A stretch of DNA of 64,000 nucleotides from Gammaproteobacteria bacterium (GTDB taxonomy: Bacteria; Pseudomonadota; Gammaproteobacteria; SZUA-152). Under the pieces are notes generated by a model. It was given only the letters and a program-made list of their open reading frames with translations, ran no database searches and was not told where the DNA came from. A program made the translations under genes and the position numbers. The stretch spans positions 63,962-127,961 of the forward strand of contig JAVVEP010000003.1 in assembly GCA_032250735.1 (NCBI GenBank). Reading direction: 5' to 3'. Positions 1 to 52,116 of this stretch are shown here, in pieces. Every line of letters starts with the position of its first letter. The first letter of the stretch is position 1.

Positions 1-21
1 ATTTACGTCATTGCCGCAATA

Positions 22-1707
22 GTGGCTGTGTTCATATTGCAAAGGATTTACATCCGCCTACGACTATCGCTAGCCAAGCACCCCTCATTAAGAGGTCATG
101 CAAAATGGTCACGCCGGATAAGCAAGCTCGTCCCTTACTTCGGATATGGGGCAGACCGGTTCTTTTGTAGTGATGCCGCTCCTGCTGAAGTCGCAGATAA
201 TCGTCGTCAGGCCATGGACAGGCTCAGGCTGCGATTGCAATCACGTGCACCAAGAACGATGGCTGCAAGCCTCTCCCTGCAAGACAGTATTTCGGATGTA
301 AACTTTACCAGCAACTACCGTGTGCCCTTCCCGTATCGACAATTCCTGCCCGTTGAGTTCAAGGCCGGAACCATCGCCGAGCAAACTGACGGTGTCAGAA
401 TCAGGGACCTCGATGGAAACTGGAACTACGACCTTACCGGCTCTTATGGCGTCAACGTCTTCGGCTATGATTTTTACAAGGACTGCATGGAGTCCGGCTT
501 CGCCAAAGTAAAGGATCTTGGGCCCGTGCTGGGTACCTACCATCCGCTGATTCAGGAAAACGCTGAAATGCTGAAAGGCATTTCGGGACTCGATGAGGTC
601 TCATTTCACATGTCGGGCACCGAAGCAGTCATGCAGGCAGTGCGACTTGCACGTTATCACACAGGAAAATCACACCTGGTCAGGTTCTGTGGCGCATATC
701 ATGGATGGTGGGATGGCGTACAGCCAGGCATTGGCAATCAACGTAAGACCAATGACGTTTACACCCTTGCCGACCTCAGCAAGGCCACTCTCAAAGTACT
801 GGAAACGCGCAATGATATTGCCTGCGTGTTGATAAACCCACTACAGGCCCTGCATCCAAATTCTGACGCTCCCAGCGATGCAACACTGATTAACAGCTCA
901 AGATCTGCCCATTTTGATCGTGATACTTACACGGCATGGTTACACCAGATTCGTGACGTCTGCACACGAAAGAATATCGTGCTCATCTTTGATGAAGTGT
1001 TTACTGGCTTCCGGTTGGGATACAGAGGGGCGCAGGAATATTTCGACATACAGGCAGATATCGTAACGTACGGCAAGACATTGGGGGGCGGCCTGCCGAT
1101 TGGCGTGGTCTGTGGCCGACACCATTTGATGAAGCGCTACAAGGATAATCAGCCCGCAAACATCTCTTTCGCCAGAGGCACCTTCAATTCTCACCCCTAT
1201 GTGATGGGTTCGATGAATGAATTTCTGCACCGCATTGTCCAGCCGGAGATTATGAGCATCTACGAACAAGCAGATATTGTGTGGAATGCGAGAACCCAAC
1301 AACTCAATGAAGAGCTGGCAGATGAATCCCTGCCCGTGAGCATTGTCAATCTTCATTCCATCTGGACGATTCTCTATTCCAGACCATCTCGTTACAACTG
1401 GATGTTCCAGTTTTACCTCCGCGCACAGGGCCTTGAGATTAGCTGGGTCGGCACCGGGCGGATCATCATGAGCCTCAATTTCACCGACGACGATTTTAAC
1501 GAAGTCAAATCACGGTTTATACGCGCCGCACGGCAAATGGAAAATGACGGCTGGTGGTGGCAATCACGCGAGCTAACCAACAAATCCATCAAGCGGCAGA
1601 TGCTGAAAGAAATGATTGGCGCACGCCTCCCCTTATTCAAACCACACAAGGAGATTGAGGTACAGGATTGTACACGGCCACCAACCGTGGAGACCCTACA
1701 GCAATGA
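22..1707 (+). CDS. Class-III PLP-dependent aminotransferase (glutamate-1-semialdehyde aminomutase-like) with ~130-aa N-terminal extension; possibly 5'-truncated by the window edge
   Basis: 561-aa ORF with FHMSGTEAVMQAVRLAR, FDEVFTGFR and the PLP-lysine motif YGKTLGGGLPIG (Lys codon 1075-1077). The ORF-track start is GTG and the frame has no stop back to base 1. Confidence 0.8.
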   Translation: MAVFILQRIYIRLRLSLAKHPSLRGHAKWSRRISKLVPYFGYGADRFFCSDAAPAEVADNRRQAMDRLRLRLQSRAPRTMAASLSLQDSISDVNFTSNYRVPFPYRQFLPVEFKAGTIAEQTDGVRIRDLDGNWNYDLTGSYGVNVFGYDFYKDCMESGFAKVKDLGPVLGTYHPLIQENAEMLKGISGLDEVSFHMSGTEAVMQAVRLARYHTGKSHLVRFCGAYHGWWDGVQPGIGNQRKTNDVYTLADLSKATLKVLETRNDIACVLINPLQALHPNSDAPSDATLINSSRSAHFDRDTYTAWLHQIRDVCTRKNIVLIFDEVFTGFRLGYRGAQEYFDIQADIVTYGKTLGGGLPIGVVCGRHHLMKRYKDNQPANISFARGTFNSHPYVMGSMNEFLHRIVQPEIMSIYEQADIVWNARTQQLNEELADESLPVSIVNLHSIWTILYSRPSRYNWMFQFYLRAQGLEISWVGTGRIIMSLNFTDDDFNEVKSRFIRAARQMENDGWWWQSRELTNKSIKRQMLKEMIGARLPLFKPHKEIEVQDCTRPPTVETLQQ

Positions 1708-4412
1708 TCAACACTTCATACAGCGAACGAATGAGTGAATTCCGGACTTCCTTGCGTTCAGAGTTTGATGAATATCTAAAACAGATCACGCTCAAATATG
1801 ACCTGAAGAATTGCCTGAAGGTCGACCTGCATTGTCATGATCATAATAGCGACGTTCCTGACGAACTCTGGGGAAGAATTCTCAGACTGCCGGAAACCTG
1901 GCTGAAAACGCAGAATCTCGTCAAATGCCTGAAACAGAATGATTGCGATGTCATCACGGTGACCAATCATAATAATGCACGCTCGTGCTGGGAGCTGCAG
2001 GAACGGGGGTATGACGTACTGCCGGCAGCAGAATTCACCTGCCATTTCCCGGAGTACAACCTGTTCGTCCACATACTCACCTATGGCTTCACCCGGCAGC
2101 AGGAAAAGACCCTGAATAAAAAGCGCCAGAATATTTACGACTTCCTGCGCTACACCGCTGTCAATGATCTGCCGGTAATCCTGCCCCATCCGCTGTATTT
2201 CTACACCAGGAACGACAAGATAGACCTAAGTCTTTTCGAAAAGTTGGCTGTCATGTTTCAGCGATTCGAGGTCCTTAACGGTCAACGGGATCTGTGGCAA
2301 AGCGTATTAACGCTTAACTGGGCCGAAGGTCTTACGCCTGAAAAGATCCTGGGCTTCGCAAAAAAGCACGATCTCGATCCCGCCGACTATGGTGTTGATC
2401 CCTACCGTCCAAAAATATTGACCGGTGGCTCAGATTGCCACACAGGCATCTTTGCCGGCCAGTGCGGAAGCTATTTATATATACCCGACCTGCAGGAAAG
2501 GCTGGAGCATTCAACGCCCTCCGCACTGGCGCTTGAGGCCATCCGCGAAGGCAATGTCGCGGCCTTTGGGCATGTTGCCGAGAATCAAAAACTGAATATT
2601 GCATTGCTGGACTATTTCTCTCAGGTGGCGACAAAAATCGAGGATCCTGGCCTGTTGCGCATCCTGTTCCATCGCGGCGAAGTATCCGACAAGGTCTCCT
2701 GCCTGGTGATCAGTAATCTTCTTCTGGAAATGAAAAAGCACAAGAACACGCAGAAGTTCTTTGAGTTCGTCCACAACGCACTGCATGGCAAAAAACCTAA
2801 CAAATTGTTGAAATGGAAAGTCAGCAAGGATTATCGCTTCTGCATTACCCAACTGGAAAAAATCGCTGTCAGCTGCAACGGCCCGCCAGAGATCTTTATT
2901 GATACCGTCAATCAGGCAGTCAACGATCTGTTCCTGGATCTTAATAGGCTGATCATAAAAAGGATTAAGAAATCCGGTGATTCATCAGAAAAATACAGAT
3001 TAAAGTCCTTTTCTACTGAGGAAATCACCCGCAAATTTGAGGTGCCGAGTCAATTGACGGCACTGATCTTCGGCAACAAGTCAATGCAGGAGGACATGAG
3101 CGAACTAAGCGTCTCAAAACTGTTTGATAACCTCTCCTTCCCGGTCCTGGTCGGCATCATCCTCACCAGCGTGACTCTTGGCAGCACCCGGCTGCTGTAT
3201 CAGAACCGCAGCTTCCTGAATGACTTCTCTGATTATATTGGCAGAAACCAACACCCAAGACGCGCCCTTTATCTTACCGATACATTAAGGGACAAAAATG
3301 GCGTATCCAACTCCCTGTCAGCCAAACTTGCTGAAATTCAGCGCATGGATCTGCCGGTTGATATCTTGATCTGTCATCCTGACGCACAACCTGAACCGCA
3401 CCTGCATGTTGTACGACCACTGACTTCATTCACCGTACCGGATTTTGGCGAGCAAGAACTGCGGATTCCTGACTTGCTCGAGATTGCACGCCTGTTCTAT
3501 GAAGGCGGATACGATCGGATTGTGTGCTCTACTGAAGGACCGATGGCACTCGTTTCACTGTTCATCAAGCACATGTTCAATGTGCCTAGTTTTTTCTTCA
3601 TGCACACTGACTGGCTGGATTACATCAAGGACACCACGGACCTCACATTGCATGAGCGTGACCGGATACGGCGCACCTTGCGCGTCTTCTATAAGCAGTA
3701 CTCCGGTGTCTTCGTGCTCAATAACGAACATCGCGACTGGCTTGTTGGCCACCATATGCAGCTTGCGGATGAACGGGTTTTCTTAACCGCCCACCATACA
3801 TCCGCCCGCGACAACAGCGTTACTGGTGTTAACAAGACGGACCTGTTCAATGACGCCATTGCCAATACGCCTGTACTGCTTTTCGCAGGAAGGATCAGCA
3901 AGGAGAAAGGCATCTTCGATTTGCCGGACATTATCGCCAATGTCAAACAGTCAATGCCTGATGTGAAAATAGTTATTGCAGGCACCGGGCCTGCTGAAGA
4001 TGCACTCAAGCAGGCCTTACCGGAAGCACTCTTTCTTGGCTGGGTCGACAAACACTACCTGGCCGAGCTTTATGCGGGACTCGATCTTTTTGTTTTCCCA
4101 TCACGGTTCGATACCTTCGGCAATGTCATCCTCGAATCATTCACGTATGGCATGCCCGCCGTTGCCTATAATTGCAAGGGGCCAAAAGACATCATTCAAC
4201 ATGATGTGTCCGGGTATCTGGCAAACGATATCGAACAGATGAGCGATCACATCATTCGCTTCTTCTCATCCGAGCCAAAACGCGCCGGAATGATCCAAAA
4301 GGCTATTCGCAGATCCCAGGATTATCAGGCAGAGCCCATCATGCAGAAATTCCTGCAAGATATGGGTCTTGGCATGCCGCCAGTACTAATCGAGCAGCAA
4401 TCGGTCGCGTAA
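1704..4412 (+). CDS. Fusion protein: N-terminal PHP-family phosphoesterase plus C-terminal GT4 (group 1) glycosyltransferase
   Basis: N-terminus has DLHCHDHNSD and ITVTNHNN (PHP HxH metal motifs). C-terminus has FAGRISKEKG...VKIVIAGTGP...FVFPSRFDTFGNVILESFTYGMPAVA (GT4 signature). The ORF track starts at TTG 1668; ATG 1704 forms an ATGA overlap with the upstream stop, and GGAGA lies 12 nt upstream. Confidence 0.75.
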   Translation: MINTSYSERMSEFRTSLRSEFDEYLKQITLKYDLKNCLKVDLHCHDHNSDVPDELWGRILRLPETWLKTQNLVKCLKQNDCDVITVTNHNNARSCWELQERGYDVLPAAEFTCHFPEYNLFVHILTYGFTRQQEKTLNKKRQNIYDFLRYTAVNDLPVILPHPLYFYTRNDKIDLSLFEKLAVMFQRFEVLNGQRDLWQSVLTLNWAEGLTPEKILGFAKKHDLDPADYGVDPYRPKILTGGSDCHTGIFAGQCGSYLYIPDLQERLEHSTPSALALEAIREGNVAAFGHVAENQKLNIALLDYFSQVATKIEDPGLLRILFHRGEVSDKVSCLVISNLLLEMKKHKNTQKFFEFVHNALHGKKPNKLLKWKVSKDYRFCITQLEKIAVSCNGPPEIFIDTVNQAVNDLFLDLNRLIIKRIKKSGDSSEKYRLKSFSTEEITRKFEVPSQLTALIFGNKSMQEDMSELSVSKLFDNLSFPVLVGIILTSVTLGSTRLLYQNRSFLNDFSDYIGRNQHPRRALYLTDTLRDKNGVSNSLSAKLAEIQRMDLPVDILICHPDAQPEPHLHVVRPLTSFTVPDFGEQELRIPDLLEIARLFYEGGYDRIVCSTEGPMALVSLFIKHMFNVPSFFFMHTDWLDYIKDTTDLTLHERDRIRRTLRVFYKQYSGVFVLNNEHRDWLVGHHMQLADERVFLTAHHTSARDNSVTGVNKTDLFNDAIANTPVLLFAGRISKEKGIFDLPDIIANVKQSMPDVKIVIAGTGPAEDALKQALPEALFLGWVDKHYLAELYAGLDLFVFPSRFDTFGNVILESFTYGMPAVAYNCKGPKDIIQHDVSGYLANDIEQMSDHIIRFFSSEPKRAGMIQKAIRRSQDYQAEPIMQKFLQDMGLGMPPVLIEQQSVA

Positions 4413-4414
4413 TC

Positions 4415-5326
4415 ATGGCCAGTATCGTTCGCAATATGAGTCAGCAGGAACAGTTAAATTTTCTGTTGACCAACAGAATTCCGCGACGCTACCTGACACG
4501 ATTGATGGGCTGGTATAGCAAGATAGAAAGCCGCGCATTGACCAGGCTTTCCCTAGTCATCTGGAAACATTTCGCTGCCGATCTTGACCTTACCGAAGCA
4601 AAACACTCTACGTTCCGTAGCCTTCATGACTGTTTTATTCGCGAACTGAAGAGCGGTGCTCGCCAGGTAGATACCGACCTACATACCATCACCTGCCCCT
4701 GCGATGCCATTGTCGGCGAGTGCGGGCCAATTACGGGAACACAGGTATTCCAGGCAAAGGGCTTTCCCTACGAGCTGGCCGAGCTTATTCCCGACAAAAC
4801 CTTACAGGAAAAGTATCGCGACGGCATCTACGTGACATTGCGCCTCAAGTCTTCCATGTATCACCGTTTTCATGCGCCCATCGACTGCAGGGTAACGCAC
4901 ATTGATTACATCTCAGGAGATACCTGGAACGTGAACCCTGTCGCCCTCAAGCGCATCGAGAAGCTTTTCTGTAAAAATGAACGGGCCGTCGTTGAGCTAG
5001 TGCTCGGTGATGAGGTAGACGATGCGCACCAAAAAAGTATCACCCTGGTGCCGGTTGCTGCAATCCTGGTCGCCAGCATGAAATTCCACTGCCTGGACAC
5101 CGAGCTGGATCTTCAATACCGCGGGCCTAACCGTTTACCCTGCGATGCCCAATACCGGAAAGGCGACGAGATGGGTTATTTTCAACACGGCTCGACCATC
5201 ATTCTGTTCGCGACCTCTCATTACAGACTGCATGACAGCGTATCGACGGGCAACAGAATATTCATGGGACAGGCTCTGCTCACGGACAATGACATTTCTA
5301 ATCGACAACCAACCAAAGAGGGATAA
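4415..5326 (+). CDS. Phosphatidylserine decarboxylase-family pyruvoyl proenzyme
   Basis: 303 aa with FIRELKSGARQVD, SSMYHRFHAP and the self-cleavage motif HGST (5189-5197). The ATG lies 2 nt after the upstream stop. Confidence 0.8.
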   Translation: MASIVRNMSQQEQLNFLLTNRIPRRYLTRLMGWYSKIESRALTRLSLVIWKHFAADLDLTEAKHSTFRSLHDCFIRELKSGARQVDTDLHTITCPCDAIVGECGPITGTQVFQAKGFPYELAELIPDKTLQEKYRDGIYVTLRLKSSMYHRFHAPIDCRVTHIDYISGDTWNVNPVALKRIEKLFCKNERAVVELVLGDEVDDAHQKSITLVPVAAILVASMKFHCLDTELDLQYRGPNRLPCDAQYRKGDEMGYFQHGSTIILFATSHYRLHDSVSTGNRIFMGQALLTDNDISNRQPTKEG

Positions 5327-5331
5327 TCGTC

Positions 5332-5961
5332 ATGGGATTCTTTGAAGAACTGCAACAACAACGCTGGGACGACCATCGTTTTTATCACCATAACCGTGTA
5401 AACCAGACGCTGCATTTACTCAGCGCTTTCTGTTTTCTCACCAGCTATATACTGATATTTGTCAACCCGGTGCTGGCGGTAATGGTCGGCTGGCTGCTGG
5501 CGATGATTCTACGCCAGGTGGGCCATTTCTTTTTTGAACCGAAAACCTATGACGCCGTAAACCAGGCATCGCATGAATACAAGGAAAAAGTAAAGGTTGG
5601 TTATAACCTGCACCGAAAAATCATACTCTTATCCGTGTGGGTAGCCTCCCCCTTGGTCCTGTTTGTCGACGCGAGCCTGTTCGGCCTGTTTCAGCCACAC
5701 CAGGACCTTGCAGGGTTCATTGATCACACGGCGATGATCTGGCTATTTGTCGGTATCGGCGCGGTTGTATTCCGCACCCTACACCTGTTTTTTATCATGG
5801 GCGTGCAGTCAGGTCTGGTATGGTTTTCCAAGATCCTTACCGATCCCTTTCATGATATTAAAATCTACTACAAGTCGCCGTATTACCTGTTTAAAGGCGA
5901 TATGTATGATGACATGAGCGACTGGTATGATGTCCCTCGCGTTGCCAAGACTCGAAAATAG
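5332..5961 (+). CDS. His-rich polytopic membrane protein, tentatively DUF962/Mpo1-like
   Basis: 209 aa with several hydrophobic helices and the motifs HHNRVNQTLH and GHFFFEP. AGAGGGA Shine-Dalgarno; 5-nt gap to the upstream gene. Confidence 0.55.
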   Translation: MGFFEELQQQRWDDHRFYHHNRVNQTLHLLSAFCFLTSYILIFVNPVLAVMVGWLLAMILRQVGHFFFEPKTYDAVNQASHEYKEKVKVGYNLHRKIILLSVWVASPLVLFVDASLFGLFQPHQDLAGFIDHTAMIWLFVGIGAVVFRTLHLFFIMGVQSGLVWFSKILTDPFHDIKIYYKSPYYLFKGDMYDDMSDWYDVPRVAKTRK

Positions 5962-6125
5962 TCCGTCTGAATCACCCATATGTTTTTTAGCCATCGTTAT
6001 GAGGGTCGGCATAATCTGGCATCACGAATTCTTTAGGCGTGATTACTCTTCATGCTTACCTTGACAGCGATGCCTGTCTCTTGAGAGGCGCGTGCGAACC
6101 CCGGTCGTCATTCGGTCAGTCACTG

Positions 6126-6662
6126 TTATTCATGGCCTGGACCCTCGCCACCCAAGGCAACAAACTCACCGGTGAACCTGCCCACCACCTGGCCCTCGTA
6201 TTCCAGCACGGCGCCGACAGCAATCCTGGCCTTGCCCTTGCGCATCAGCATGCGCGTAAAGCGGGGCCAGTCCTGCGGCCGCTCGATCGACGAGCGTGCC
6301 GTAAACTCGCCGTCAATGGGGCGTTCGTATTCCACCGAATTGCGCTGAATCACCACACGGCTATCGATACCGGCGCTGCGCAGCCGGGTGTACAGCAGAG
6401 ACCACGCCGCAAGAATCGCCAGCGCCGAGGCACTGCCACCGAACACCGTTTCACGATGATTGATGTTCGGCTTCAGCGGCGCGCGCAACACCACCTCATC
6501 CTCCGCCATGGAAACCACCGACACCGCCATCGCCTTTGACAATGGAATGTGCTCATGAAGGTATTGTTCAAGCTGGGTGTATGGCACAGGCCTCTCCCTC
6601 TTTACAAACATGGCAGGCAGGGTGGACATGAATTTTGTGCCCACATGGTACCGATACGCCAC
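6126..6662 (-). CDS. Hotdog-fold thioesterase (YiiD C-terminal domain-like)
   Basis: 178-aa ORF with PLKPNINHRETVFGGSASALAILAAWSLLY, typical of YiiD_C/PaaI-like thioesterases. The exact start is uncertain. Confidence 0.65.
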   Translation of the reverse strand: MAYRYHVGTKFMSTLPAMFVKRERPVPYTQLEQYLHEHIPLSKAMAVSVVSMAEDEVVLRAPLKPNINHRETVFGGSASALAILAAWSLLYTRLRSAGIDSRVVIQRNSVEYERPIDGEFTARSSIERPQDWPRFTRMLMRKGKARIAVGAVLEYEGQVVGRFTGEFVALGGEGPGHE

Positions 6663-6761
6663 ACGTCACCATCAGTTTTCAGCAAGCCATTAACACGTGC
6701 AGCGCGGGCATAAAAAACGCGCCCGCCCTACCTGACTAGACCAATGGCAGTGCATCTCAGG

Positions 6762-7202
6762 CTAGCCCTTTAAGTCATTCGGTTTCCAGTAACGCTGCAT
6801 TTCTATAAACAGGAACGACGCTGACCAGGTAATCATTACCAGCCCGGTCAGGGCCTCTAGCCCGGTCAAATGTCGCAGATCACCGATCGCGTCAATATCG
6901 CCATATCCCAGGGTGGTGTAGGTGCTAAACGAAAAGTACACACAGTCCAGCACACTGCCATCAAACCCTCCGCTCAAATGGCCCCACCCTTGCGCATGAT
7001 GCATGAAGTAGTACGCCAGCGCGAACACCCAGACCTCAATCGTATGGGCAATCATCGCGCCGAACACGCCCAGCAAAATCAGGAATCGATGCCGTATCCT
7101 GATGCGTTGGAGATGTAGTGTCAGTCGATACAAGAACTCATAGTGAATAATGACCACGACCGCGATAACGATACTGTTGACGATAAATACGGGTAGCACC
7201 AC
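6762..7202 (-). CDS. Minimal potassium channel (pore-only, no cytoplasmic gating domain)
   Basis: 146 aa with the selectivity filter TTLGYGD flanked by hydrophobic helices. Confidence 0.8.
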   Translation of the reverse strand: MVLPVFIVNSIVIAVVVIIHYEFLYRLTLHLQRIRIRHRFLILLGVFGAMIAHTIEVWVFALAYYFMHHAQGWGHLSGGFDGSVLDCVYFSFSTYTTLGYGDIDAIGDLRHLTGLEALTGLVMITWSASFLFIEMQRYWKPNDLKG

Positions 7203-7308
7203 TCTTCCTCTCTTGCTGAAAAAAATTGGTCTTGCAATAAATCTATTGCTGGGTCAGATAAATCCTGACGGAAGGAGCATAGTCCAGTCTTGAAGGGTGA
7301 ATTCAAGA

Positions 7309-7893
7309 TTAAAAGCTTGGCTCCATCTTTTTATGGTTAAAGGTGTAGTCACCTATACTACGTTCGCCGTTGTTGTCGATGGCCAGCAGGCGTACGCGCA
7401 GGGTGGTGGTCGGCAGGGCGCGCAAGGCGTCGATACCCGTGGAGAACACCACCGTCCCGCTGTCGGCGGTAAACGGAATATCGTGCAGGCGCATGCCGCT
7501 CTCGTTATCATCATCACCATCGAGGTAGATCATGTCGAGCTGCTGCACGCCCTCCAGCGGCGCCTTGAGATAGGCCACCACGAAGTCGTCCTCGGGGGCG
7601 ACGGTGCAGTTCACCGCGCCATTGAGCGGCACGTAATACTCCCGCACGTGCATGCCCTGCTCTACCAAGCGCTGTACGAACGGCTCATTGATGACCACGC
7701 TCACGCCGCTTGTGCGGGTGAGATCGCGCACTTGCTGGGCCAGGGCGACAAGCTGTTGCAGGCGGCGGCTGCATGGCTCGCAACCCAGATAGTGCTCCTC
7801 GACCTGCGCCTCGCGCTCGGCATCCAGCTCGCCAAGCCAGTAGGCAAGCAGGCTATCCCATACCACGGGTGACTGACAGTCTGAGGATTTCAT
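7309..7893 (-). CDS. Zinc-finger (HxxxCxxC) anti-sigma factor, apparently soluble
   Basis: EEHYLGCEPC ZAS motif near the N-terminus and no obvious TM helix. ATG 7893 overlaps the sigma-factor stop (ATGA). Confidence 0.7.
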   Translation of the reverse strand: MKSSDCQSPVVWDSLLAYWLGELDAEREAQVEEHYLGCEPCSRRLQQLVALAQQVRDLTRTSGVSVVINEPFVQRLVEQGMHVREYYVPLNGAVNCTVAPEDDFVVAYLKAPLEGVQQLDMIYLDGDDDNESGMRLHDIPFTADSGTVVFSTGIDALRALPTTTLRVRLLAIDNNGERSIGDYTFNHKKMEPSF

Positions 7894-8459
7894 TCGCTTT
7901 CTCCGGTAACACACCGGCGCAGGCGTTCAAGGCCGCGGTGACGGATGACGCGCACATTTGCCGCACTCAGTTCCAGCTCTTGCGCCAGGGCCTCGGCCGG
8001 CAATTCGTTATAGAAACTCAATATCAGGATGGTTCGCTCCCGTTCCGACAACGATTCCAGACAGGGCGCAAGGCGCTTGCCGTCCAGCTCCGGCAGCGTG
8101 ACCTCCGGCGGCGACAGTGCCTCGCCATAGGTCTCCAGCAGGCGTTCGCGCCGGCTGTGGCCACGGCGCAGCTCCAGCACCACCATGCGGCAGATGCCAA
8201 ACACGAACGAGGCCAGTCGCTCCTGTTCGCGGAGTGCACCGGCGCGCAGACGCTCGATCAGCATCAGCATCACCTGCTGCATAAGATCCGCGGCGGCGGC
8301 CTCACTGCGCAGATGCCGCAGGCCATACAGCCGCACGCGCGGCGCAAGCCGTCGACAGAGTTCCGCCTCCGCCTCACGGTCGACAGCGGGCGCCGCCTGC
8401 GCCACCCGCTGGGCCAGGCTGGCGTCGTCGAAAGGGGTTTCGGACTCTTGTCGGCACAT
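7890..8459 (-). CDS. ECF-type RNA polymerase sigma-70 factor
   Basis: 189 aa. Region 4 reads LSERERTILILSFYNELPAEALAQELELSAANVRVIRHRGLERLR, and a region 2-like segment lies upstream. Confidence 0.85.
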   Translation of the reverse strand: MCRQESETPFDDASLAQRVAQAAPAVDREAEAELCRRLAPRVRLYGLRHLRSEAAAADLMQQVMLMLIERLRAGALREQERLASFVFGICRMVVLELRRGHSRRERLLETYGEALSPPEVTLPELDGKRLAPCLESLSERERTILILSFYNELPAEALAQELELSAANVRVIRHRGLERLRRCVTGESE

Positions 8460-8494
8460 ATTTGCAGCATATTACGGCCTCCCTGGCTTTGGAA

Positions 8495-8521
8495 GTGTAA
8501 CGATCGGCCGTGCCGTTACAC
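8495..8521. promoter_or_regulatory. Perfect 8-bp inverted repeat GTGTAACG-N11-CGTTACAC in a divergent intergenic region
   Basis: Read directly from the sequence. It lies between the ECF sigma gene start (8459) and the MBL-fold gene start (8569). Confidence 0.4.
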
Positions 8522-8568
8522 CTCCCTGTAACTCAGCAACAATCCAACCACCACCCAGGGAGTTCACC

Positions 8569-9309
8569 ATGATCACCAATAAACAGTCAGGCACCAATAT
8601 CCACGAGATCGCCGACGGCATCTACCGGATCAACACCCCCATCCAACTGCCAGTAGGGGCCTTCAGCTTCAACCAGTATCTGATTGTCGATGATCAGCCC
8701 ATGCTGTTTCATACCGGCCCGCGACGCATGTTCCCCCTGGTGCAGGAGGCCATCGCCGGCATCCTGCCGCCGGAACAACTGAGTTACATCGGCTTCTCGC
8801 ACTACGAGGCGGATGAGTGCGGCTCACTCAACGAATTTCTTGCCGTGGCACCCGAATCCGTCCCCGTCTGTAGCCAGGTCGCGGCCATAGTCTCGGTCAA
8901 CGATGTCGCCGACCGTGCCGCCAGGGCGATGGCGGATGGCGAGGTACTGGATCTGGGCAGACATGCCCTGCGCTGGTTCGACACTCCCCACCTGCCCCAC
9001 GGCTGGGAGTGCGGCCTGATGTTTGACGACACCACCCGCACCCTGATGTGTGGCGACCTGTTCACCCAGGGTGGCGAAGGCAAGGAGGCGTTGGTGGAAA
9101 GCGACATCCTCGGCCCCAGCGAGGCCTTTCGTGGCGCCATGGATTATTACGCGCATACCCCGAACACCGAGCTGATGCTCGAACGCCTCGCCCAGCAATC
9201 GCCGGCCACGCTGGCCTGCATGCACGGCAGCGCCTGGCGGGGAGATGGCGCCGCACTCCTGCGCGCATTGTCAAAATCCATCGAGCAGCGGCAGGCTGAT
9301 GCAGGATAA
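8569..9309 (+). CDS. Metallo-beta-lactamase-fold protein (flavodiiron/ROO N-terminal domain-like)
   Basis: MITNKQSGTNIHEIADGIYRINTP...FSHYEADECG...WFDTPHLPHGWE. AGGGAG Shine-Dalgarno upstream of ATG 8569. The longer track ORF (8185) overlaps the sigma gene antisense and is rejected. Confidence 0.7.
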   Translation: MITNKQSGTNIHEIADGIYRINTPIQLPVGAFSFNQYLIVDDQPMLFHTGPRRMFPLVQEAIAGILPPEQLSYIGFSHYEADECGSLNEFLAVAPESVPVCSQVAAIVSVNDVADRAARAMADGEVLDLGRHALRWFDTPHLPHGWECGLMFDDTTRTLMCGDLFTQGGEGKEALVESDILGPSEAFRGAMDYYAHTPNTELMLERLAQQSPATLACMHGSAWRGDGAALLRALSKSIEQRQADAG

Positions 9310-9385
9310 GTTGATAACAAAATTTCGCAGCCAGGGAGAGTGGGTACAGAAATGTGCCTACCTTACACGCCGCCGGGTAATTTAG

Positions 9386-9441
9386 GTGCTGAGTGCTGAG
9401 TGCTGAGTGCTGAGTGCTGAGTGTTGAGTGTTGAGTGCGGA
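9386..9441. repeat. Heptanucleotide microsatellite: (GTGCTGA)x5, (GTGTTGA)x2, GTGCGGA
   Basis: Counted directly in the sequence. Confidence 0.95.
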
Positions 9442-9883
9442 GGACTTAAGTAAAAACCGTTATCTCCCGCACATCACACTCTGCGCTTAACTCAATACGG
9501 CTTTTTTCGTAGGGTGGGCATTGCCCACCATTGCACCAAACCCAACAATGCCGGATTGATGGAGAATGCCTACCTTACCTGACAGCGGAACCACCACCGA
9601 TCATTAACATTCGGCGCAATGCCCTTCGGTTATTGCGCCCTACGGGCTGAGTGCTGAGTGCTGAGTGCTGAGTGCTGAGGACTTAAGTAAAAACCGTTAT
9701 CTCCCGCACATCACACTCTGCGCTTAACTCAATACGGCTTTTTTCGTAGGGTGGGCATTGCCCACCATTGCACCAAACCCAACAATGCCGGATTGGTGGA
9801 GAATGCCTACCTTACCTGACAGCGGAACCACCACCGATCATTAACATCCGGCGCAATGCCCTTCGGTTATTGCGCCCTACGGG
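9442..9883. repeat. Tandem duplication with 237-bp period: two ~205-bp units (9442-9646 and 9679-9883) separated by a second (GTGCTGA)x4 tract (9644-9678)
   Basis: The units align base for base except 9559A/9796G and 9611T/9848C. Each contains the palindromes CGTAGGGTGGGCATTGCCCACC and GGCGCAAT-N11-ATTGCGCC. Confidence 0.95.
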
Positions 9884-14193: not shown

Positions 14194-14805
14194 TTACAGA
14201 CCAAACATCGATTTCTTCTTGGTCTTGCGGATCTCTTTTTCATCCGACCATTCCAGAATGCCGGTCTCGATGTGCATCAGCTTCATGGTGAACTTGTAAT
14301 ACACGTCTTTCTGGTCAGAGTTGCGCTTGACGATACTCGACAGATTGCCGTACAGCATGTACTCGGCCCCGATCTGCTGGCCCATCTTGACCGCGGTGCT
14401 GTCCTTGACCATGCCGCTGTCACTCTGGAATTCCATCTGGTTGCGCACGGCGGCGACCTTGGTCATATCGACAAAGCGGAATTTACCGGAGCGCAATAAA
14501 CGGCTCGAAATGGTATCGGTAACGGATTCCGTGTCGATATGTTCGCTGGTCTTGTTCTGGATGGTGTCGACAAACATCACCGGGCGACGCTTGCTGGTCA
14601 CCTCCACAATCGGCGGAAAGGTCAGCACGGAGTCGACCATCTTTTCCGCAATCTTTTGCAGATCCGTCGAACCGAAATCGGTAGTGGTGGTTTCAACCGC
14701 GCCGGCATCGCCATAGGCTACCTGCTTGCCCCCACACCCCGACAGGCTGACGGACAAGACACCCACCGCAAACACACTTCCCAAGGCTTTCAATACATCA
14801 TTCAT
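14194..14805 (-). CDS. lpoB: Penicillin-binding protein activator LpoB-like lipoprotein
   Basis: Lipobox LSGC. IAEKMVDSVL...PVMFVDTIQNKTSEHIDTESVTDTISSRLLRSGKFRFVD resembles LpoB. Adjacent to ycfL, as in E. coli. Confidence 0.7.
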   Translation of the reverse strand: MNDVLKALGSVFAVGVLSVSLSGCGGKQVAYGDAGAVETTTTDFGSTDLQKIAEKMVDSVLTFPPIVEVTSKRRPVMFVDTIQNKTSEHIDTESVTDTISSRLLRSGKFRFVDMTKVAAVRNQMEFQSDSGMVKDSTAVKMGQQIGAEYMLYGNLSSIVKRNSDQKDVYYKFTMKLMHIETGILEWSDEKEIRKTKKKSMFGL

Positions 14806-15212
14806 TACAATTCCCTCACGTTGACTTTATAACTTTTGACAGATGGATTTGGCGCGACCGCCTTCATGCTGGTACTGGCGTGACCATTGAGGGTCACCGG
14901 CGTCCACGAGCGACTACCCTGCTCAACCTCAAAATTATCCGCATCGTACCAGGAGAAGAGGTACTGAATATTCTTATGAGAGCTGGTCAGGTTGGTCAGT
15001 ACCACATCGACCTCCAGCACACCGCCGGTGACGCGCGAATTCATCTCGGTGATGGTGACATCACCTGCCAGCGATTCATTATGGATCACCAGGTGCTTGG
15101 CAAACTCCGGATCGCCCATGGGTTTGCCGATGGCCTCAATGCCCGAGGTCGCACAACCGGCAAGCATCAGCACCACTCCTACACAAGAAAGACTCCAGCC
15201 TTTATTCATCAT
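14805..15212 (-). CDS. ycfL: YcfL-family (DUF1425) lipoprotein
   Basis: Lipobox LAGC, 135 aa, YLFSWYDADNFEV motif. TAATG overlap with lpoB. Confidence 0.65.
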   Translation of the reverse strand: MMNKGWSLSCVGVVLMLAGCATSGIEAIGKPMGDPEFAKHLVIHNESLAGDVTITEMNSRVTGGVLEVDVVLTNLTSSHKNIQYLFSWYDADNFEVEQGSRSWTPVTLNGHASTSMKAVAPNPSVKSYKVNVREL

Positions 15213-15240
15213 CCATTCTCCTGTTCTTTACACTGCGAGG

Positions 15241-16650
15241 TCACATAACAATAGCATCAGTGTGCAGGGTCTGCTCGGTTGCCACCACCCGGACCACCGT
15301 CCGCTTACCCGGCTCCACCTTGACCTGCATCACACCCGCAGCCTTGCCATTATTCAGCTGTAACTGATATTCCCCCTGCGGGAGGGAGCTTCTGAGAATC
15401 TGCGCGTCATTGGGCAGGGTCAGCCAGCTGCGACGGTCGGCATTTTCACTGGCGATGTTAAAGATATCGGCGCCCAGTTTTGCCCAGGGGCCTGCCGCCT
15501 TGCCGGCCTGCTCGGCCATCTCCTTTTTGGCCACCACCCGCAACACCTGCCGGGTGAGCATGGCGGGCAACTTTTCCTGCAGGGCCTTCACTGCCATCGC
15601 CTGCACATACACGATCGGGCTGGTCTCCCCCAGCGCGCCTCTCCCCTCGATCGCGACACTCAAGGATGACGGGGGCTGCCACTGCACGGCATAAAAGGGA
15701 AAGGCCACCTTCTGCACCTGATTGCCGGTAAAGATTGGCACGCTGGTTTCCGTTTTGGCCGGCACAAAGCCATGCTCAAACAGCACCACCAGCTCCCCCT
15801 CGCCCTGCCCCGGACTGGCCGCCTCTATGGGATAGCGCTTTTTAAAGGTTTGATAATCGTCTCTCATGCCCAGCTGTTTGGCGAGCCTCAGCACATCTCG
15901 TTGCACATAGATGTTATCCGGAAAAATCTCCAGGGCCTTTTTATAGTCAATATAGGCATCATTGGGTTTTCCCAGGATTTCATAGATGATGCCGGACACA
16001 TAAAAGGTGTAGGCATTCTGAAAGGAATTTTTTACCTTTCCCGCCACCGACTCCATGGCCGAAAAGGCACCCATAAAGGATTTATTGCCCGCCGAATATT
16101 CGCGTGCCTTTTCCTCTGCGGCCGCCAGTTCATCTTCATGCGCCTCAAGCGCGGCCTGCTGCTCCAGGTTTGCGCGCCTCACTTCGACACTCGCGGCCTC
16201 CAGGTTGTTGGAGAACAGATAATTCATCGCCTGATACTGGTGCACAAAGACGCGTTCATGGCCATCGCCCGCATAGGGAATCGCATTATCATTGCTGAGT
16301 AGCGCGCTGCCCTGCGCCGCGGTATCGGTGAGAGAGATTTTCGCCTTTTCCTCATTGACCTCCATCGCCTCAATCACCTGCTTGAAATCCTCGATGCTCG
16401 ACGCCTTGTCATTGGCGAGCTGCGAAACGCGGCCACGCTCCATCATGTAGAGGATTTTATCGGCGTCTTCCCGATAGGCGTCGAGCGCATCCTGCGCCAG
16501 CTTGTACTGCTTGGCCTGGACCTGCTGCTTAATCGGTTGCAGCTGTGTTGGATAGGATGTGAACATTGATGAAGCCGCACAGCCACCCAGCAGCAATGCG
16601 ATACCCAGCAACCCAAAGCTTCTGATTGCAGACCCCGCTCCTGAAATCAT
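15241..16650 (-). CDS. TPR-containing lipoprotein of unknown function
   Basis: Lipobox LGGC. TPR-like segment FQNAYTFYVSGIIYEILGKPNDAYIDYKKALEIFPDN. Family not recognised with confidence. Confidence 0.6.
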   Translation of the reverse strand: MISGAGSAIRSFGLLGIALLLGGCAASSMFTSYPTQLQPIKQQVQAKQYKLAQDALDAYREDADKILYMMERGRVSQLANDKASSIEDFKQVIEAMEVNEEKAKISLTDTAAQGSALLSNDNAIPYAGDGHERVFVHQYQAMNYLFSNNLEAASVEVRRANLEQQAALEAHEDELAAAEEKAREYSAGNKSFMGAFSAMESVAGKVKNSFQNAYTFYVSGIIYEILGKPNDAYIDYKKALEIFPDNIYVQRDVLRLAKQLGMRDDYQTFKKRYPIEAASPGQGEGELVVLFEHGFVPAKTETSVPIFTGNQVQKVAFPFYAVQWQPPSSLSVAIEGRGALGETSPIVYVQAMAVKALQEKLPAMLTRQVLRVVAKKEMAEQAGKAAGPWAKLGADIFNIASENADRRSWLTLPNDAQILRSSLPQGEYQLQLNNGKAAGVMQVKVEPGKRTVVRVVATEQTLHTDAIVM

Positions 16651-16697
16651 TTCTTTCTACCCTCAATGCTCATGCTGCGTTTTTGTTGTTTTGTTTT

Positions 16698-17651
16698 TTA
16701 CCAGCTAAAGGGCTTGTCACTCGAACCGGGCGTCATCTCCCTTTCCTGAACGGCCTCTGGCTCCTGCTCTCCCAACCTGACAATTGCTCCCTCCTTGATC
16801 TGCCCTGCACCCGTCAGGATTTTCGCCGTGGAAAACTTTTTCTGAATGGCATCCACCTCAACGCGACCGACTTCCTTCTCGGCGCTGCCCAGGGACTCAC
16901 CGGTATCCGGATCGACCAGCCCCTCACCCTGAACCAATACCGTCAGCACATCACCCACCTTGAAGCTGACGCCCGCGCCGCGATTGATATACACCTTGCT
17001 CCCCTCAAGCTTGATGATCTTCAGGGGAAACACGCCTTCGACAATACCATTCACAATCGCCTTGACGGACTGCTCCTTGAGGGCGTCCAGAAAATCATCT
17101 GGGGTCACTTCGTTGTTGCGATTTCTGTCTTCATGCTCAACAACGAACTTGTTGGCCGTAACCACCTTGCCACCACGGCTGTCCACAATGCGCACATTTA
17201 CCGTTAGCTTGCCCTTGTACTGCTGCTGTACCTGGTCGGTATAGGGAATTTTTTTGGTTTCGATTCCCGCCTGAAACTGTTCGATCTTGCCCATCACAAA
17301 ATAGTCGGCGCCGATCAGCTTGCCTAACTTCACTGCCGTTTCCGGGGAGATATATCCCGACTCACTGAACTCCTGCTCGGTAAGGATATCTTTCATCCTG
17401 TTGCGCTCGACCACATCAAACTTGTTGGCCTTGACCAGGAAGGTCATCAGTTCGGAGGTTAGAAATTTTGTCGAGCTCTCGACCGTCTCACGTACGATGA
17501 AACCGTGACCAAAGGTGATCGTGTCTTTATCCGCGGTGAAATCGAGCACCGCGATGGTGGGCCGGGCGGCCAACAGGGCAGAGGTTGAAAACAACAACAC
17601 ACAGGAAACAACACACAGTACAACCGATCGCCTAATCTTCATCATGATCAA
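16698..17651 (-). CDS. CsgG/HfaB-family protein with ~90-aa C-terminal extension
   Basis: PTIAVLDFTA...FDVVERNRMKDILTEQEF...KLGKLIGADYFVMGKI matches the CsgG-family pattern. The C-terminal beta-rich segment (KVYINRGAGVSFKVGDVLTVL...) is additional. Confidence 0.7.
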   Translation of the reverse strand: MIMMKIRRSVVLCVVSCVLLFSTSALLAARPTIAVLDFTADKDTITFGHGFIVRETVESSTKFLTSELMTFLVKANKFDVVERNRMKDILTEQEFSESGYISPETAVKLGKLIGADYFVMGKIEQFQAGIETKKIPYTDQVQQQYKGKLTVNVRIVDSRGGKVVTANKFVVEHEDRNRNNEVTPDDFLDALKEQSVKAIVNGIVEGVFPLKIIKLEGSKVYINRGAGVSFKVGDVLTVLVQGEGLVDPDTGESLGSAEKEVGRVEVDAIQKKFSTAKILTGAGQIKEGAIVRLGEQEPEAVQEREMTPGSSDKPFSW

Positions 17652-45490: not shown

Positions 45491-46144
45491 TTATCTTTGC
45501 CCTGTATTCACTGCCTCGCCGATCTGCTCGATGAGGGCCTTGACCCGCGCGTGCTTCACCTTCATCGCCGCCTTGTTGACGATCAGCCGCGAGCTGATAT
45601 CGGCGATGTGCTCAAAGGGGGCCAGGCCGTTGGCGCGGAGGGTGTTGCCGGTGTCCACCACATCGACGATGCGATCGGCCAGGCCTACCAGGGGCGCCAG
45701 CTCCATGGAGCCGTAGAGCTTGATAATCTCTACCTGCTCGCCGCGGCTGGCATAAAACCGGCGGGTGCTGTTGACGAACTTGGTGGCCACCCGCAGCCGT
45801 CGACCAGGCAGCACCGCCTCCTCGCCCACCCGCCCGGCGGTCATCAGCTTGCAGCGGGCGATGTTCAGATCCAGCGGCTCATAGAGGCCGTCGCCGCCGT
45901 GTTCCAGCAGCACGTCCTTGCCCGCCACGCCCACATCCGCCGCCCCGTACTGCACATAGGTCGGCACGTCAGTGGCGCGCAGGATCAGCACCTTCACCTC
46001 GGCCTGATTGGTATCCAGGATCAGCTTGCGAGACGTATCGGGATCGTCCACCAGCTCGATACCGGCGTGGCGCAGCAGCGGTAGCGTCTCTTTGTAAATG
46101 CGTCCCTTGGAGAGGGCGATAATCAGGCTGTTATTTTCACTCAT
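45491..46144 (-). CDS. hisG: ATP phosphoribosyltransferase (short form)
   Basis: IALSKGRI...[23 protein letters not shown]...[16 protein letters not shown] 46144 or GTG 46153. Confidence 0.93.
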
Positions 46145-46161
46145 ATCTGGCACGTTTCACT

Positions 46162-46217
46162 GTAGGGTGGGCATTGCCCACCAGCACACTATTTTCGGTG
46201 GGCAATGCCCACCCTAC
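46162..46217. repeat. REP-like inverted pair GTAGGGTGGGCATTGCCCACC-N14-GGTGGGCAATGCCCACCCTAC
   Basis: Read directly. It begins 18 nt upstream of the hisG ATG (46144). Confidence 0.92.
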
Positions 46218-46256
46218 ACACTCAGCACTCAGCACTCAGCACTCAGCACTCAGCAC
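46218..46256. repeat. Heptanucleotide microsatellite (CACTCAG) x5.5, reverse complement of the 9.4-kb tracts
   Basis: Counted directly. It abuts the murA stop codon (46260-46262). Confidence 0.95.
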
Positions 46257-46259
46257 TAT

Positions 46260-47528
<1,269 letters not shown>

Positions 47529-48042: not shown

Positions 48043-48813
48043 TTAGCCGCGGATTTTGTAACCCTTTTGCAGCATCAGCAGGGCCACCGCGCTCAGCGCC
48101 ACCAGAAATACCAGGGTCACCAGCAGGCTGAGCATGGGATCGGCATCCGATTGGCCAAAAAAGCCGTAGCGAAACCCGTCGATCAGATAGAAAAAGGGAT
48201 TGAACTGCGACACGGTCTGCCACATCCCGGGCAGGGAATGGATGGAATAGAACACCCCGCTCAGAAACGACAGGGGCAGGATGAAAAAATTCTGGAATCC
48301 GGCCAGCTGATCAAACTTTTCCGCCCATACCCCGGCGATCAGCCCCAGCACCCCCAGGGTGGCGCTGCCCAGCACGGCGAACACCACGATCGCCCACCCC
48401 GCCGCCAACGGCAGATCGATAAACAGGATCGCCACCAGGTACACCGCCAGCGCCACCAGCACCCCGCGCACCACCGCGGCGGCGGCGTGGGCGATAAAAA
48501 ACTCCAGGCTGGAGATGGGCGACAGCAGCACAAATACCAGATTGCCCATCATCTTCGACTGGATCAGGCTCGACGAGGTATTGGCGAAGGCGTTCTGGAT
48601 GATGGACATCATCATCAGCCCGGGGATCAGGAAGGACGAATAGCCCACCCCGTCATAGACCTGCACATTGCCCTCCAGGGCCTGACCAAACACCAGCAGG
48701 TAGAGCAGCGCGGTGACCACCGGCGTCAGGATGGTCTGCACAAACACCTTCATAAAACGCCACACCTCCTTGGCGAACAGCGTGTAGACACCGCGCAGTC
48801 GGGAGGCCCTCAT
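48043..48813 (-). CDS. ABC-2 type exporter permease (YadH-like)
   Basis: LFAKEVWRFMKVFVQTILTPVVTALLYLLVFG and six hydrophobic segments. Confidence 0.85.
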   Translation of the reverse strand: MRASRLRGVYTLFAKEVWRFMKVFVQTILTPVVTALLYLLVFGQALEGNVQVYDGVGYSSFLIPGLMMMSIIQNAFANTSSSLIQSKMMGNLVFVLLSPISSLEFFIAHAAAAVVRGVLVALAVYLVAILFIDLPLAAGWAIVVFAVLGSATLGVLGLIAGVWAEKFDQLAGFQNFFILPLSFLSGVFYSIHSLPGMWQTVSQFNPFFYLIDGFRYGFFGQSDADPMLSLLVTLVFLVALSAVALLMLQKGYKIRG

Positions 48814-50058: not shown

Positions 50059-50699
50059 GGTTTTACGCCATCCGTCACCACGGCGGGTGCGTTGCGTTCG
50101 GCCAGCCGCTCGATCAGTTTCTCCAGCCCGTCCTTGCGGATCTCCTGGGCAAACGAGGTCCGGTAATTGGCCACCAGACTGATGCCGTCCACGCTCACAT
50201 CAAACACCTTCCAGGTGTCGTCCTTGATGTGCATCTTGTAGTCGATCGGGATGGGGAAGCCGGCGGACTGCTGAATCTCGGTGCGCACCGTCACCTGCGA
50301 GCCATCCGCCTGTTCACGGGCCGGCAGCATGTCGATCTTCTTGTCGTAATTATCATTCAGGGCCTTGGCATAGGTGCGCACCAGCAGGGTGCGAAACTCA
50401 CTGGCAAAACGCTTTTTCTCATCAGGCTTGGCGGTGCGCCAGTATTTACCCAGCACCCAGCTGGACATGCGGTCAAAATCGAAGTGCGGCGCGACGATAT
50501 CGTCGACCACCTGCAACAGGTAATTGGGGTCGGCGCTGATCTTGTCCTGCTCGGCGCGCAACACGCTGGTGATCTGGTCGGTGGTCTGCTGTACCAGCTC
50601 CTGCGGCGCCTGGATGGCCAGCGCCGGGGCGCTCAACATACCCAGCGCCAGACACCAGCCGGCATATCTTGTTAAGCCCTTGCTCACGACATTCCTCAC
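50055..50699 (-). CDS. mlaC: Periplasmic phospholipid-binding protein MlaC (Ttg2D family)
   Basis: Signal peptide, then IVAPHFDFDRMSSWVLGKYWR...FRTLLVRTYA...VDGISLV. Confidence 0.88.
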   Translation of the reverse strand: MRNVVSKGLTRYAGWCLALGMLSAPALAIQAPQELVQQTTDQITSVLRAEQDKISADPNYLLQVVDDIVAPHFDFDRMSSWVLGKYWRTAKPDEKKRFASEFRTLLVRTYAKALNDNYDKKIDMLPAREQADGSQVTVRTEIQQSAGFPIPIDYKMHIKDDTWKVFDVSVDGISLVANYRTSFAQEIRKDGLEKLIERLAERNAPAVVTDGVKP

Positions 50700-52090: not shown

Positions 52091-52116
52091 GTCCAGAGGC
52101 TAGCCGTCAATGGCGC

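Follow-up and report, generated by a model that had tools for sequence, protein, structure and literature searches.

An important way in which bacteria of oceans and soils adapt to scarce phosphate is to exchange their phospholipids for lipids free of phosphorus, and the established routes to such lipids (PlcP-Agt glycolipids, ornithine/glutamine lipids and betaine lipids) do not cover all taxa. In the PlcP-Agt system, described in Sinorhizobium, SAR11, Phaeobacter and Pseudomonas aeruginosa, separate enzymes turn phospholipid into diacylglycerol and the latter into glycolipid (PMC4796936, PMC8528852). Here we analyzed a stretch of 64,000 nucleotides of a gammaproteobacterial genome (assembly GCA_032250735.1, contig JAVVEP010000003.1, positions 63,962 to 127,961; in what follows, the window), the first 5961 nucleotides of which are occupied by a module of four genes, g1-g4. 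Like PlcP-Agt, this module combines a phosphoesterase with a GT4-type glycosyltransferase, is, judging by its relatives, associated with the phosphate-starvation (Pho) regulon and has the same expected outcome. Unlike the calcineurin-like PlcP (PF00149), its phosphoesterase is predicted to have the PHP fold; the two activities appear from the sequence to be fused in one protein of 902 amino acids with a hydrophobic helix between them; and the fusion is obligatorily linked to an aminotransferase, to an enzyme resembling phosphatidylserine decarboxylase (PSD) and to a protein resembling the yeast enzyme Mpo1. We interpret the module as a Pho-linked operon of membrane-lipid remodelling with the PHP-GT4 fusion as its core, a reading to which we give about an even chance of being correct; any single version of the chemistry outlined below for the accessory proteins g1, g3 and g4 is much less probable than that. 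The features of the module are as follows.

1..1707, + strand: g1, class III (glutamate-1-semialdehyde (GSA) aminomutase-like) aminotransferase, apparently membrane-anchored; the window edge cuts off about 6 codons of its 5' end
1..345, + strand: N-terminal extension of g1, delimited by alignment of seven orthologues
1704..1707, + strand: ATGA stop/start overlap of g1 and g2, read from the sequence
1704..2738, + strand: predicted PHP-fold metal-dependent phosphoesterase domain of g2 (residues 1-345), from the predicted fold and ligand motifs
2739..3251, + strand: helical middle region of g2, from hydropathy and the predicted model
3252..4412, + strand: GT4 domain of g2 (GT-B, retaining-type), from Pfam and Foldseek
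4413-4414, + strand: 2-nt spacer between g2 and g3, read from the sequence
4415..5326, + strand: g3, PSD-family pyruvoyl decarboxylase proenzyme, from Pfam, TIGR00163 and the alignment with PSD
5327-5331, + strand: 5-nt spacer between g3 and g4, read from the sequence
5332..5961, + strand: g4, His-rich integral membrane protein, distantly Mpo1/DUF962-like, from a profile match and hydropathy

An earlier note, made from the letters of the window alone, had pointed to the tight packing of these same-strand genes, and the overlap and both spacers read exactly as it claimed; its smaller details are also correct (the codon of the pyridoxal phosphate (PLP) lysine, the YHRFHAP and HGST motifs, and the longest antisense open reading frame (ORF) of the module region, 138 amino acids at 940-1356). 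The g2 gene runs from the ATG at 1704 to 4412. As for g1, the alignment of the seven orthologues places its true start about 6 codons 5' of window base 1, and the GTG at position 22 is thereby ruled out as the start codon. A scan of positions 1-7000 for promoters and terminators gave no more sites than shuffled sequence does.

When a genome collection was scanned with g2, 57 loci were retrieved. The order g1-g2-g3-g4 is kept in 34 of the 36 loci in which g2 is full-length with 55% or more identity and the flanks are long enough, and the genes around the module vary from locus to locus; the four genes therefore behave as a unit, and the coupled module proposed in the earlier note is real. Its hosts include Halieaceae (Halioglobus, Haliea), Luminiphilus, Alteromonadaceae (Paraglaciecola), Thalassotalea, Methylococcales, Cycloclasticus, Nevskia, Steroidobacteraceae and Zetaproteobacteria, and among the carriers Halioglobus japonicus, Paraglaciecola species and Nevskia soli DSM 19509 are in culture. 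The suggestion that the module may continue upstream of the window does not hold for most relatives, where g1 heads the operon behind a promoter region. Upstream extension of the operon as a rule was accordingly rejected; the multi-pass membrane protein of 281 amino acids found beside the module, on either side, in 14 of 40 loci (e.g., L001:6287-7132) is an optional companion, which gave no family in a Pfam search, is absent from the window and could lie just upstream of its first base. Genes similar to g2 also stand alone, in Neptunomonas and in a spirochaete, which fits a self-sufficient PHP-GT4 core. Fusions of this type form 730 representative clusters, with more than 6000 proteins around one planctomycete/acidobacterial member; an exact-sequence look-up of the g2 protein of the window found it not on record. 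In Psychromonas sp. KJ10-10 (L043:9428-12690) the module is decayed: a short remnant of g1 is left, g2 is split into two overlapping ORFs, and g3 and g4 are gone; a Pho-box-like repeat survives, and the module is preceded by the gene of a HipA toxin.

The phosphoesterase part of g2 escapes the standard profiles. Pfam PHP (PF02811) has no match in g2 even at E 10, PF00149 has none either, and the distant homologues give only sub-threshold matches to PHP or PHP_C. A fold search with the whole of g2 was dominated by GT4 matches, and the N-terminal domain was then modelled alone; the model of residues 1-345 has a mean pLDDT (predicted local distance difference test) of 80, exceeding 90 in the core. 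In the Foldseek search of this model against the Protein Data Bank (PDB), the PHP domain of RNase AM (7ug9) was the best match (E 5.8e-8), followed by PsfC (7rty), BAD_1165 (3e0f/3o0f), Cv1693 (2yb1) and the PHP domains of PolC/PolIII, with the Foldseek probability of 1.00 for RNase AM, BAD_1165, Cv1693 and PolC; the model thus agrees with the distorted (beta/alpha)7-barrel of the PHP superfamily. The candidate metal ligands D41/H43/H45, H89, E110, H123, H162 and D244/H246 do not vary, even in relatives with 28-30% identity (for the HxH, H, E, H, H and DxH pattern, 32 close homologues and 15 divergent ones were compared), and in a profile alignment the H, E, H and GGSDxH motifs coincide with those of BAD_1165 (3e0f). 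The assignment of the N-terminal domain as a PHP-fold metal-dependent phosphoesterase, to which Pfam is blind, is supported by the predicted fold and the invariant ligand motifs. The middle region contains a single conserved hydrophobic helix, LSFPVLVGIILTSVTLGST (residues 477-495, nt 3132-3188), in and next to which F479, P480 and S494-R496 are invariant; the preceding residues 425-477 are modelled as helical with low confidence. As to the GT4 domain (residues 517-886), it scores 101 bits with Glycos_transf_1 and 33.7 bits with Glyco_transf_4 and falls far below the cutoffs of all specific NCBIfam models; its best Foldseek matches are BshA, MshA, sucrose-phosphate synthase and PimA (E ~1e-14). 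Taken together, the predicted fold, the ligands and the GT4 scores bear out the earlier description of g2 as a PHP domain fused to a GT4 glycosyltransferase.

Fusion of a synthase with a phosphatase is the rule in compatible-solute pathways, and BshA, MshA and sucrose-phosphate synthase come closest in structure to the GT4 domain. By the logic in which a glycosyltransferase and a phosphatase act in turn (sucrose-phosphate synthase/phosphatase, glucosylglycerol-phosphate synthase/phosphatase (GgpPS), MshA with its phosphatase), one could suppose that the operon makes a soluble amino-glycoside or compatible solute, the GT4 domain glycosylating a phosphorylated small acceptor, the PHP domain, whose relatives are mainly phosphomonoesterases, removing the phosphate, and g1 and the decarboxylase building or trimming the aglycone. 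We regard this as quite unlikely. The lipid-acceptor enzyme PimA scores nearly as well as the soluble-acceptor enzymes, and all four proteins have membrane features. The fused solute enzymes (sucrose-phosphate synthase/phosphatase, GgpPS, TPS-TPP) share with g2 the joining of a glycosyltransferase to a phosphatase, but their phosphatase is of the HAD type and not PHP, g2 has a hydrophobic helix and membrane-bound partners, and they serve under osmotic stress, whereas the context of the module is that of phosphate starvation, for which a tie to osmoprotection is not obvious. A further objection comes from g3.

The g3 protein belongs to the PSD family, as the earlier note had it from YHRFHAP and an intact HGST site: it scores 180 bits with PS_Dcarbxylase (PF02666) and 147.6 bits with TIGR00163 (cutoff 111.75), passing the cutoff of this generic model only and of none of the specific equivalog models, and its alignment with the E. 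coli PSD (6l06; E 5e-27, 98 bits) begins at the N-terminal membrane helices and takes in the catalytic motifs. The self-cleavage site HG|ST (5186-5197), YHRFHAP (4859-4879) and PCDA (4697-4708) are present, and the D-H-S triad is intact. Compared with the E. coli enzyme (6l06/7cnw), g3 thus has the same N-terminal amphipathic helices, triad, YHR(V/F)H motif and G-S-T self-cleavage site, but the overall similarity is low, Tyr137 is replaced by Arg and Ser166 by Asn, and the gene lies in a Pho-associated operon and not in a housekeeping psd locus. Arg in place of the phosphate-binding Tyr137 occurs in 15% of PSDs (PMC7952604), and the Arg/Asn pocket of g3, judging by these residues, would suit phosphate or another anionic group. 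The family needs acyl chains in its substrate, the bacterial PSD being inactive on serine, phosphoserine and glycerophosphoserine (PMC7952604), which speaks against the soluble product discussed above.

In g1, the class III aminotransferase fold (Aminotran_3, 118 bits) and the PLP lysine stand as the earlier note described them; K352 (codon AAG, 1075-1077) lies within TYGKTLGGG and aligns with the lysine of the aminotransferase domain of MycA. The closest solved relative, though, is this MycA domain (6kfm; 179 bits, E 1e-51, 380 residues) and not HemL. With the hemL models TIGR00713 (cutoff 527) and NF000818 (cutoff 398) g1 scores 168 and 167 bits, respectively, and in the search of solved structures GSA aminomutases reach 116 bits at most, so that the identity of g1 as HemL is ruled out. 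The N-terminal extension is also real, although it takes up about 110 and not about 130 amino acids ahead of the aminotransferase fold. It consists, in this order, of a hydrophobic helix, IYVIAAIVAVFIL, an invariant basic motif RLxLSxAKHPSLxGHxKxSR and a conserved SxSD..FT..YRxPFP; the first 110 residues contain 19 K+R against 7 D+E, and a Pfam search of the extension gave no match. With the MycA domain g1 shares the GSA-aminomutase-like class III fold and the lysine motif TYGK..GGG; it differs in being free-standing and, by prediction, membrane-anchored, in its conserved 110-residue extension and in having no polyketide synthase (PKS), nonribosomal peptide synthetase (NRPS) or carrier protein nearby. 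The amino group is moved by the MycA domain from glutamine to a carrier-bound polyketide intermediate (PMC3870968).

Two other explanations of the operon start from g1. The first takes into account its resemblance to aminotransferase domains of PKS/NRPS lines (PMC3870968), the AMP-binding enzyme found upstream of the module in one locus and the foreign composition of the module in this genome, and sees in it a small secondary-metabolite cluster for an amino-lipid or alkylamine glycoside (a surfactant or a signal) unrelated to phosphate economy. This is very unlikely in our view, since conserved genes for PKS, NRPS, carrier proteins or exporters do not accompany the module, its GC content in most hosts is host-like, as in a seemingly vertically stable element, and its upstream regions are enriched in Pho-box-like repeats. 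The second explanation turns on the fact that the class III fold also includes ethanolamine-phosphate phospho-lyase. The operon would then serve mainly to recover phosphorus and nitrogen from aminophospholipids: g3 would convert phosphatidylserine (PS) into phosphatidylethanolamine (PE), g1 would act as a lyase or transaminase on ethanolamine or ethanolamine phosphate, the PHP domain would free phosphate from phosphatidate, and the GT4 domain would cap diacylglycerol. The PbfA lyase does appear among the weak matches of g1 (63.8 bits), PHP relatives are typically monoesterases, and the Arg at the Tyr137 position of g3 is phosphate-compatible; nevertheless g1 is clearly nearer to the MycA aminating domain and to GSA aminomutases than to the known phospho-lyases, PS is a minor lipid, for which a dedicated PSD is hard to justify, and g4 is left without a role. 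We consider such salvage unlikely, and the same kinship leaves the phospho-lyase role of g1 a low probability.

Yeast Mpo1 is a Fe2+-dependent 2-hydroxy fatty acid dioxygenase and the eponym of the Pfam family PF06127. The g4 protein scores 23.5 bits with this Mpo1-like (DUF962) profile, just under the threshold of 24; the match recurs, however, in each of the 15 orthologues tested (E up to 0.01), though it is confined to residues 11-70. It is likened to yeast Mpo1 by these N-terminal 60 residues, by being a membrane protein and by invariant His and Glu; the C-terminal 140 residues lie outside the profile. The invariant residues are H15, H19, H28, H65, E69, H174 and D175, and together with the four or so hydrophobic, presumably transmembrane, helices seen in hydropathy they justify the description of g4 as a His-rich membrane protein. 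A sequence search of the PDB with g4 found no relative, and we know of no biochemical data on bacterial members of the Mpo1 family. Thus, among the profiles named in the earlier note as a check, Aminotran_3, Glycos_transf_1 and PS_Dcarbxylase match well above their thresholds, PHP misses g2, and DUF962 is borderline.

Judging by their sequences, all four proteins appear to be membrane-associated: g1 has a hydrophobic helix and a basic stretch, g2 a helix, g3 the amphipathic helices of PSD, and g4 about four transmembrane segments. From these anchors, the topology of PSD and the chemistry of PLP and nucleotide sugars we infer that their place of action is the inner membrane, on its cytoplasmic side. 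Since membrane features are found in all four, and PSD needs acyl chains, a polar lipid is favoured as the product. The earlier note had offered either a modified polar lipid head group or an amino-glyco compatible solute; the former part of this proposal is retained, and the latter is disfavoured by the membrane features, the acyl requirement of PSD and the Pho context.

This context, which was absent from the earlier note, comes from the relatives. In the region 110-190 nt before g1 they carry heptamers resembling CTGTCAT, two to four in number and repeated every 11 nt, i.e., the architecture of Pho boxes. In Halieaceae the element lies near -150 (CTGCAAC AAGA ATGTCGC AAAA TCGTCAC CCAA CTGAAAT), and in Paraglaciecola near -124 (TTGTCAT ACAA ATGTCTA TAAA GTGAAAT AAAT GGTTCAA). 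Upstream of g1 there are 1.15 matches per kb in which 11 or more of 14 positions agree, compared with 0.045 per kb in the rest of these loci, and a score of 18 or higher for four repeats is attained by 35% of the regions upstream of g1 and by 3.2% of 188 other upstream intergenic regions (Mann-Whitney p 3.5e-12 for the repeat scores, the relatives not being independent samples). Loci retrieved later by a separate route carry the same Pho-box-like element. The genes next to the module are of a similar kind: a PhoD phosphatase exported by the twin-arginine translocation (TAT) pathway stands directly upstream, on the same strand, in Halioglobus japonicus; a phn carbon-phosphorus lyase operon is divergent from the module across a common spacer of 378 nt; an OlsF-type ornithine-lipid synthase is found near the module in three loci and a patatin phospholipase in one. 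In Cycloclasticus the gene of UDP-glucose (uridine diphosphate glucose) dehydrogenase begins 4 nt past g4, which fits a glucuronic-acid lipid such as that made by Agt.

The same dehydrogenase, the Pho context and weak matches of the GT4 domain to TuaC and to lipopolysaccharide (LPS) glycosyltransferases would also agree with remodelling of an envelope glycoconjugate, in which the phosphate groups of LPS or capsule are replaced by sugars or amino sugars under phosphate limitation, after the model of Bacillus, where teichuronic acid replaces teichoic acid. However, in and near the module there is no polymerase, flippase, Wzx/Wzy or undecaprenyl-linked enzyme at the inspected loci, the operon is self-contained with its four genes only, and a PSD-family enzyme with membrane helices points to a diacyl lipid as the substrate. 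For these reasons we hold envelope remodelling to be quite improbable.

Distant homologues of g2 give some further indications. In a metagenome-assembled genome of a spirochaete (L055:4403-12260), a homologue with 39% identity follows a pstB-like ABC (ATP-binding cassette) ATPase, PhoU and a fusion of a Na/Pi cotransporter with PhoU; it overlaps the start of a 574-aa protein without a Pfam match. In L065:4466-13678 a distant PHP-GT4 gene is placed between ppk (divergent) and a Ppx-GppA exopolyphosphatase (4-nt overlap), after which come an OmpR-type response regulator and a histidine kinase. In L066:1483-9496 another one (7001-9496) is divergent from a five-gene lipid cluster comprising a small methyltransferase, a 235-aa PSD-family gene, DUF3419, a second methyltransferase and a 603-aa metallophosphoesterase. 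We take DUF3419 to be the family of the betaine-lipid synthase BtaA. The position of the PSD-family gene of L066 among genes for phosphorus-free lipids hints that PSD relatives may decarboxylate amino-acid head groups of non-phospholipids.

Returning to remodelling of membrane lipids around a PHP-GT4 core, we can picture its course as follows. The PHP domain of g2 would act on phosphatidate or a glycerophospholipid, taking off the phosphate or the phosphorylated head group, to give diacylglycerol, which the GT4 domain would glycosylate from a UDP-sugar to yield a phosphorus-free glycolipid, so that g2 would perform in two steps the work of the separate PlcP and Agt elsewhere. The g3 enzyme would act on a serine-type lipid head group, that of PS or of a similar lipid with a free amino acid, and g1 together with g4, a putative Mpo1-like iron oxygenase, would tailor a lipid-bound intermediate. 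An amine-bearing head group seems the likeliest outcome of this accessory chemistry; alternatively, g1, g3 and g4 may process the head groups of aminophospholipids. Three variants can be drawn: (a) tailoring, in which g4 oxidizes, g1 aminates and g3 decarboxylates a glycolipid or another lipid to produce an amine head group mimicking PE; (b) head-group salvage, in which PS and PE head groups are processed and their phosphorus and nitrogen recovered; and (c) amination and decarboxylation of a 2-hydroxy or 2-oxo fatty acid to a fatty amine as a precursor of a lipid amine. Substrates, products, the order of the steps and the Pho control of the window copy we infer only. It is possible, though we rather doubt it, that the product of the operon is a glycolipid of a class not yet described, free of phosphorus and bearing an amine, or some other new surrogate lipid, and that PlcP has no part in its making; the PHP-GT4 fusion would open such a route, which the membrane-anchored aminotransferase, a PSD-family decarboxylase working on a non-classical head group and the Mpo1-like oxygenase would continue.

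Several observations weigh against this interpretation as a whole. The PHP enzymes nearest in fold handle nucleotides or RNA, and PsfC is an oxidative enzyme, so that to name a lipid as the substrate of the PHP domain is to guess. BshA, MshA and sucrose-phosphate synthase, which match the structure of the GT4 domain best, take small soluble acceptors. An extra PSD has no obvious sense in a phosphorus-saving pathway. The intermediate of the MycA domain is reportedly a beta-keto acyl chain (Aron et al. 2005), and carrier-bound chains of this kind are what the nearest relative of g1 uses, whereas the module has no carrier protein. As for the Pho boxes, the carriers compared are not independent, about 15 of them being Halieaceae; in L001, which is the closest relative, the element is less regular, and a clean Pho box at the standard spacing is lacking; and the Pho control of the window copy is extrapolated from relatives because its promoter lies outside the window. 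Three of the five contexts of distant PHP-GT4 genes are uninformative. Finally, our literature search found no paper describing the four-gene set, in keeping with the earlier note, which could name no characterised pathway with it, and no functional study of a PHP-GT4 fusion.

The enzyme families and the physiological theme are known; what is undescribed, as far as the searched literature goes, is the gene set, the PHP-GT4 architecture and its linkage to PSD, MycA-like and Mpo1-like proteins. With its clear limits and wide conservation, the module makes a testable candidate for one more phosphorus-saving lipid route, in which an Mpo1-like protein may have its first role in bacteria and a PSD-family enzyme a role outside housekeeping. 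Should the operon indeed make a new lipid independently of PlcP, a widespread set of bacteria from sea and fresh water (Halieaceae of the OM60/NOR5 group, Alteromonadaceae, methanotrophs, Zetaproteobacteria and Nevskia) would own an unrecognised means of saving phosphorus, and the larger PHP-GT4 family of Planctomycetes and Acidobacteria would gain a function.

As to the origin of this copy, the first ~6 kb are indeed more AT-rich than the remainder, as the earlier note had observed. The guanine-cytosine (GC) content is about 0.50 (0.495-0.501 over 1-6000) against ~0.60 in the rest of the window, where later 2-kb bins range from 0.52 to 0.65; at third codon positions (GC3) it is 0.58-0.60 (0.59 overall) in the module against 0.68-0.85 in credible genes elsewhere, and the codon-usage distance of the module genes to the rest is 0.069-0.079 against a median of 0.044. 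Past the stop codon of g4 the GC content climbs from 0.47 to 0.60 within ~300 nt, and the downstream edge looks as follows.

5962..6125, no strand: downstream compositional boundary, over which GC climbs from 0.47 to 0.60
6126-6662, strand opposite to the module: YiiD_C thioesterase, the next gene, convergent to the module

In the 37 loci with enough flank, the GC content of the module follows that of the host, the mean difference between module and flank being -0.016. The window copy has the largest deficit among them, -0.10, and its nearest protein relatives (74-82% identity) come from uncultured Gammaproteobacteria of lower GC content (e.g., L001, 0.46); a fairly recent acquisition of the module in this genome from a lower-GC relative is for these two reasons plausible. 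Of the 'horizontally acquired' operon of the earlier note this much stands, for this genome only: in most other hosts the GC content of the module is host-like, and neither a tRNA gene nor an integrase or other mobility gene nor a flanking repeat was found on the downstream edge, the only one visible in the window. Beyond the thioesterase follow ordinary chromosomal genes, namely a K+ channel, a pair of an extracytoplasmic function (ECF) sigma factor and an anti-sigma factor, and leuS. The zf-HC2 anti-sigma gene (7309-7914, minus strand), the start of which is overlapped by the ECF-type sigma gene (7890-8459, minus strand), lies ~1.3 kb downstream of the module, and no link of the pair to the module was seen.

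Lowish GC content is also found at 10-12 kb and 14-18 kb (0.52-0.55). The second of these patches, which is milder than the module (14194-17651; GC 0.52-0.55, GC3 0.68-0.69), contains genes of LpoB-like, TPR and CsgG-like lipoproteins, and because of it the module is not the sole compositionally uneven stretch of the window. Five long ORFs further on (46098-47510, 48067-49047, 50669-52120, 52573-53403 and 56824-58665) have GC of ~0.8 at first codon positions (GC1), above a GC3 of ~0.64. This excess of GC1 over GC3 is the signature of shadow ORFs, read in the wrong strand or frame of high-GC genes, and these ORFs are the 'antisense' frames of 470-613 amino acids with which the earlier note had contrasted the module.

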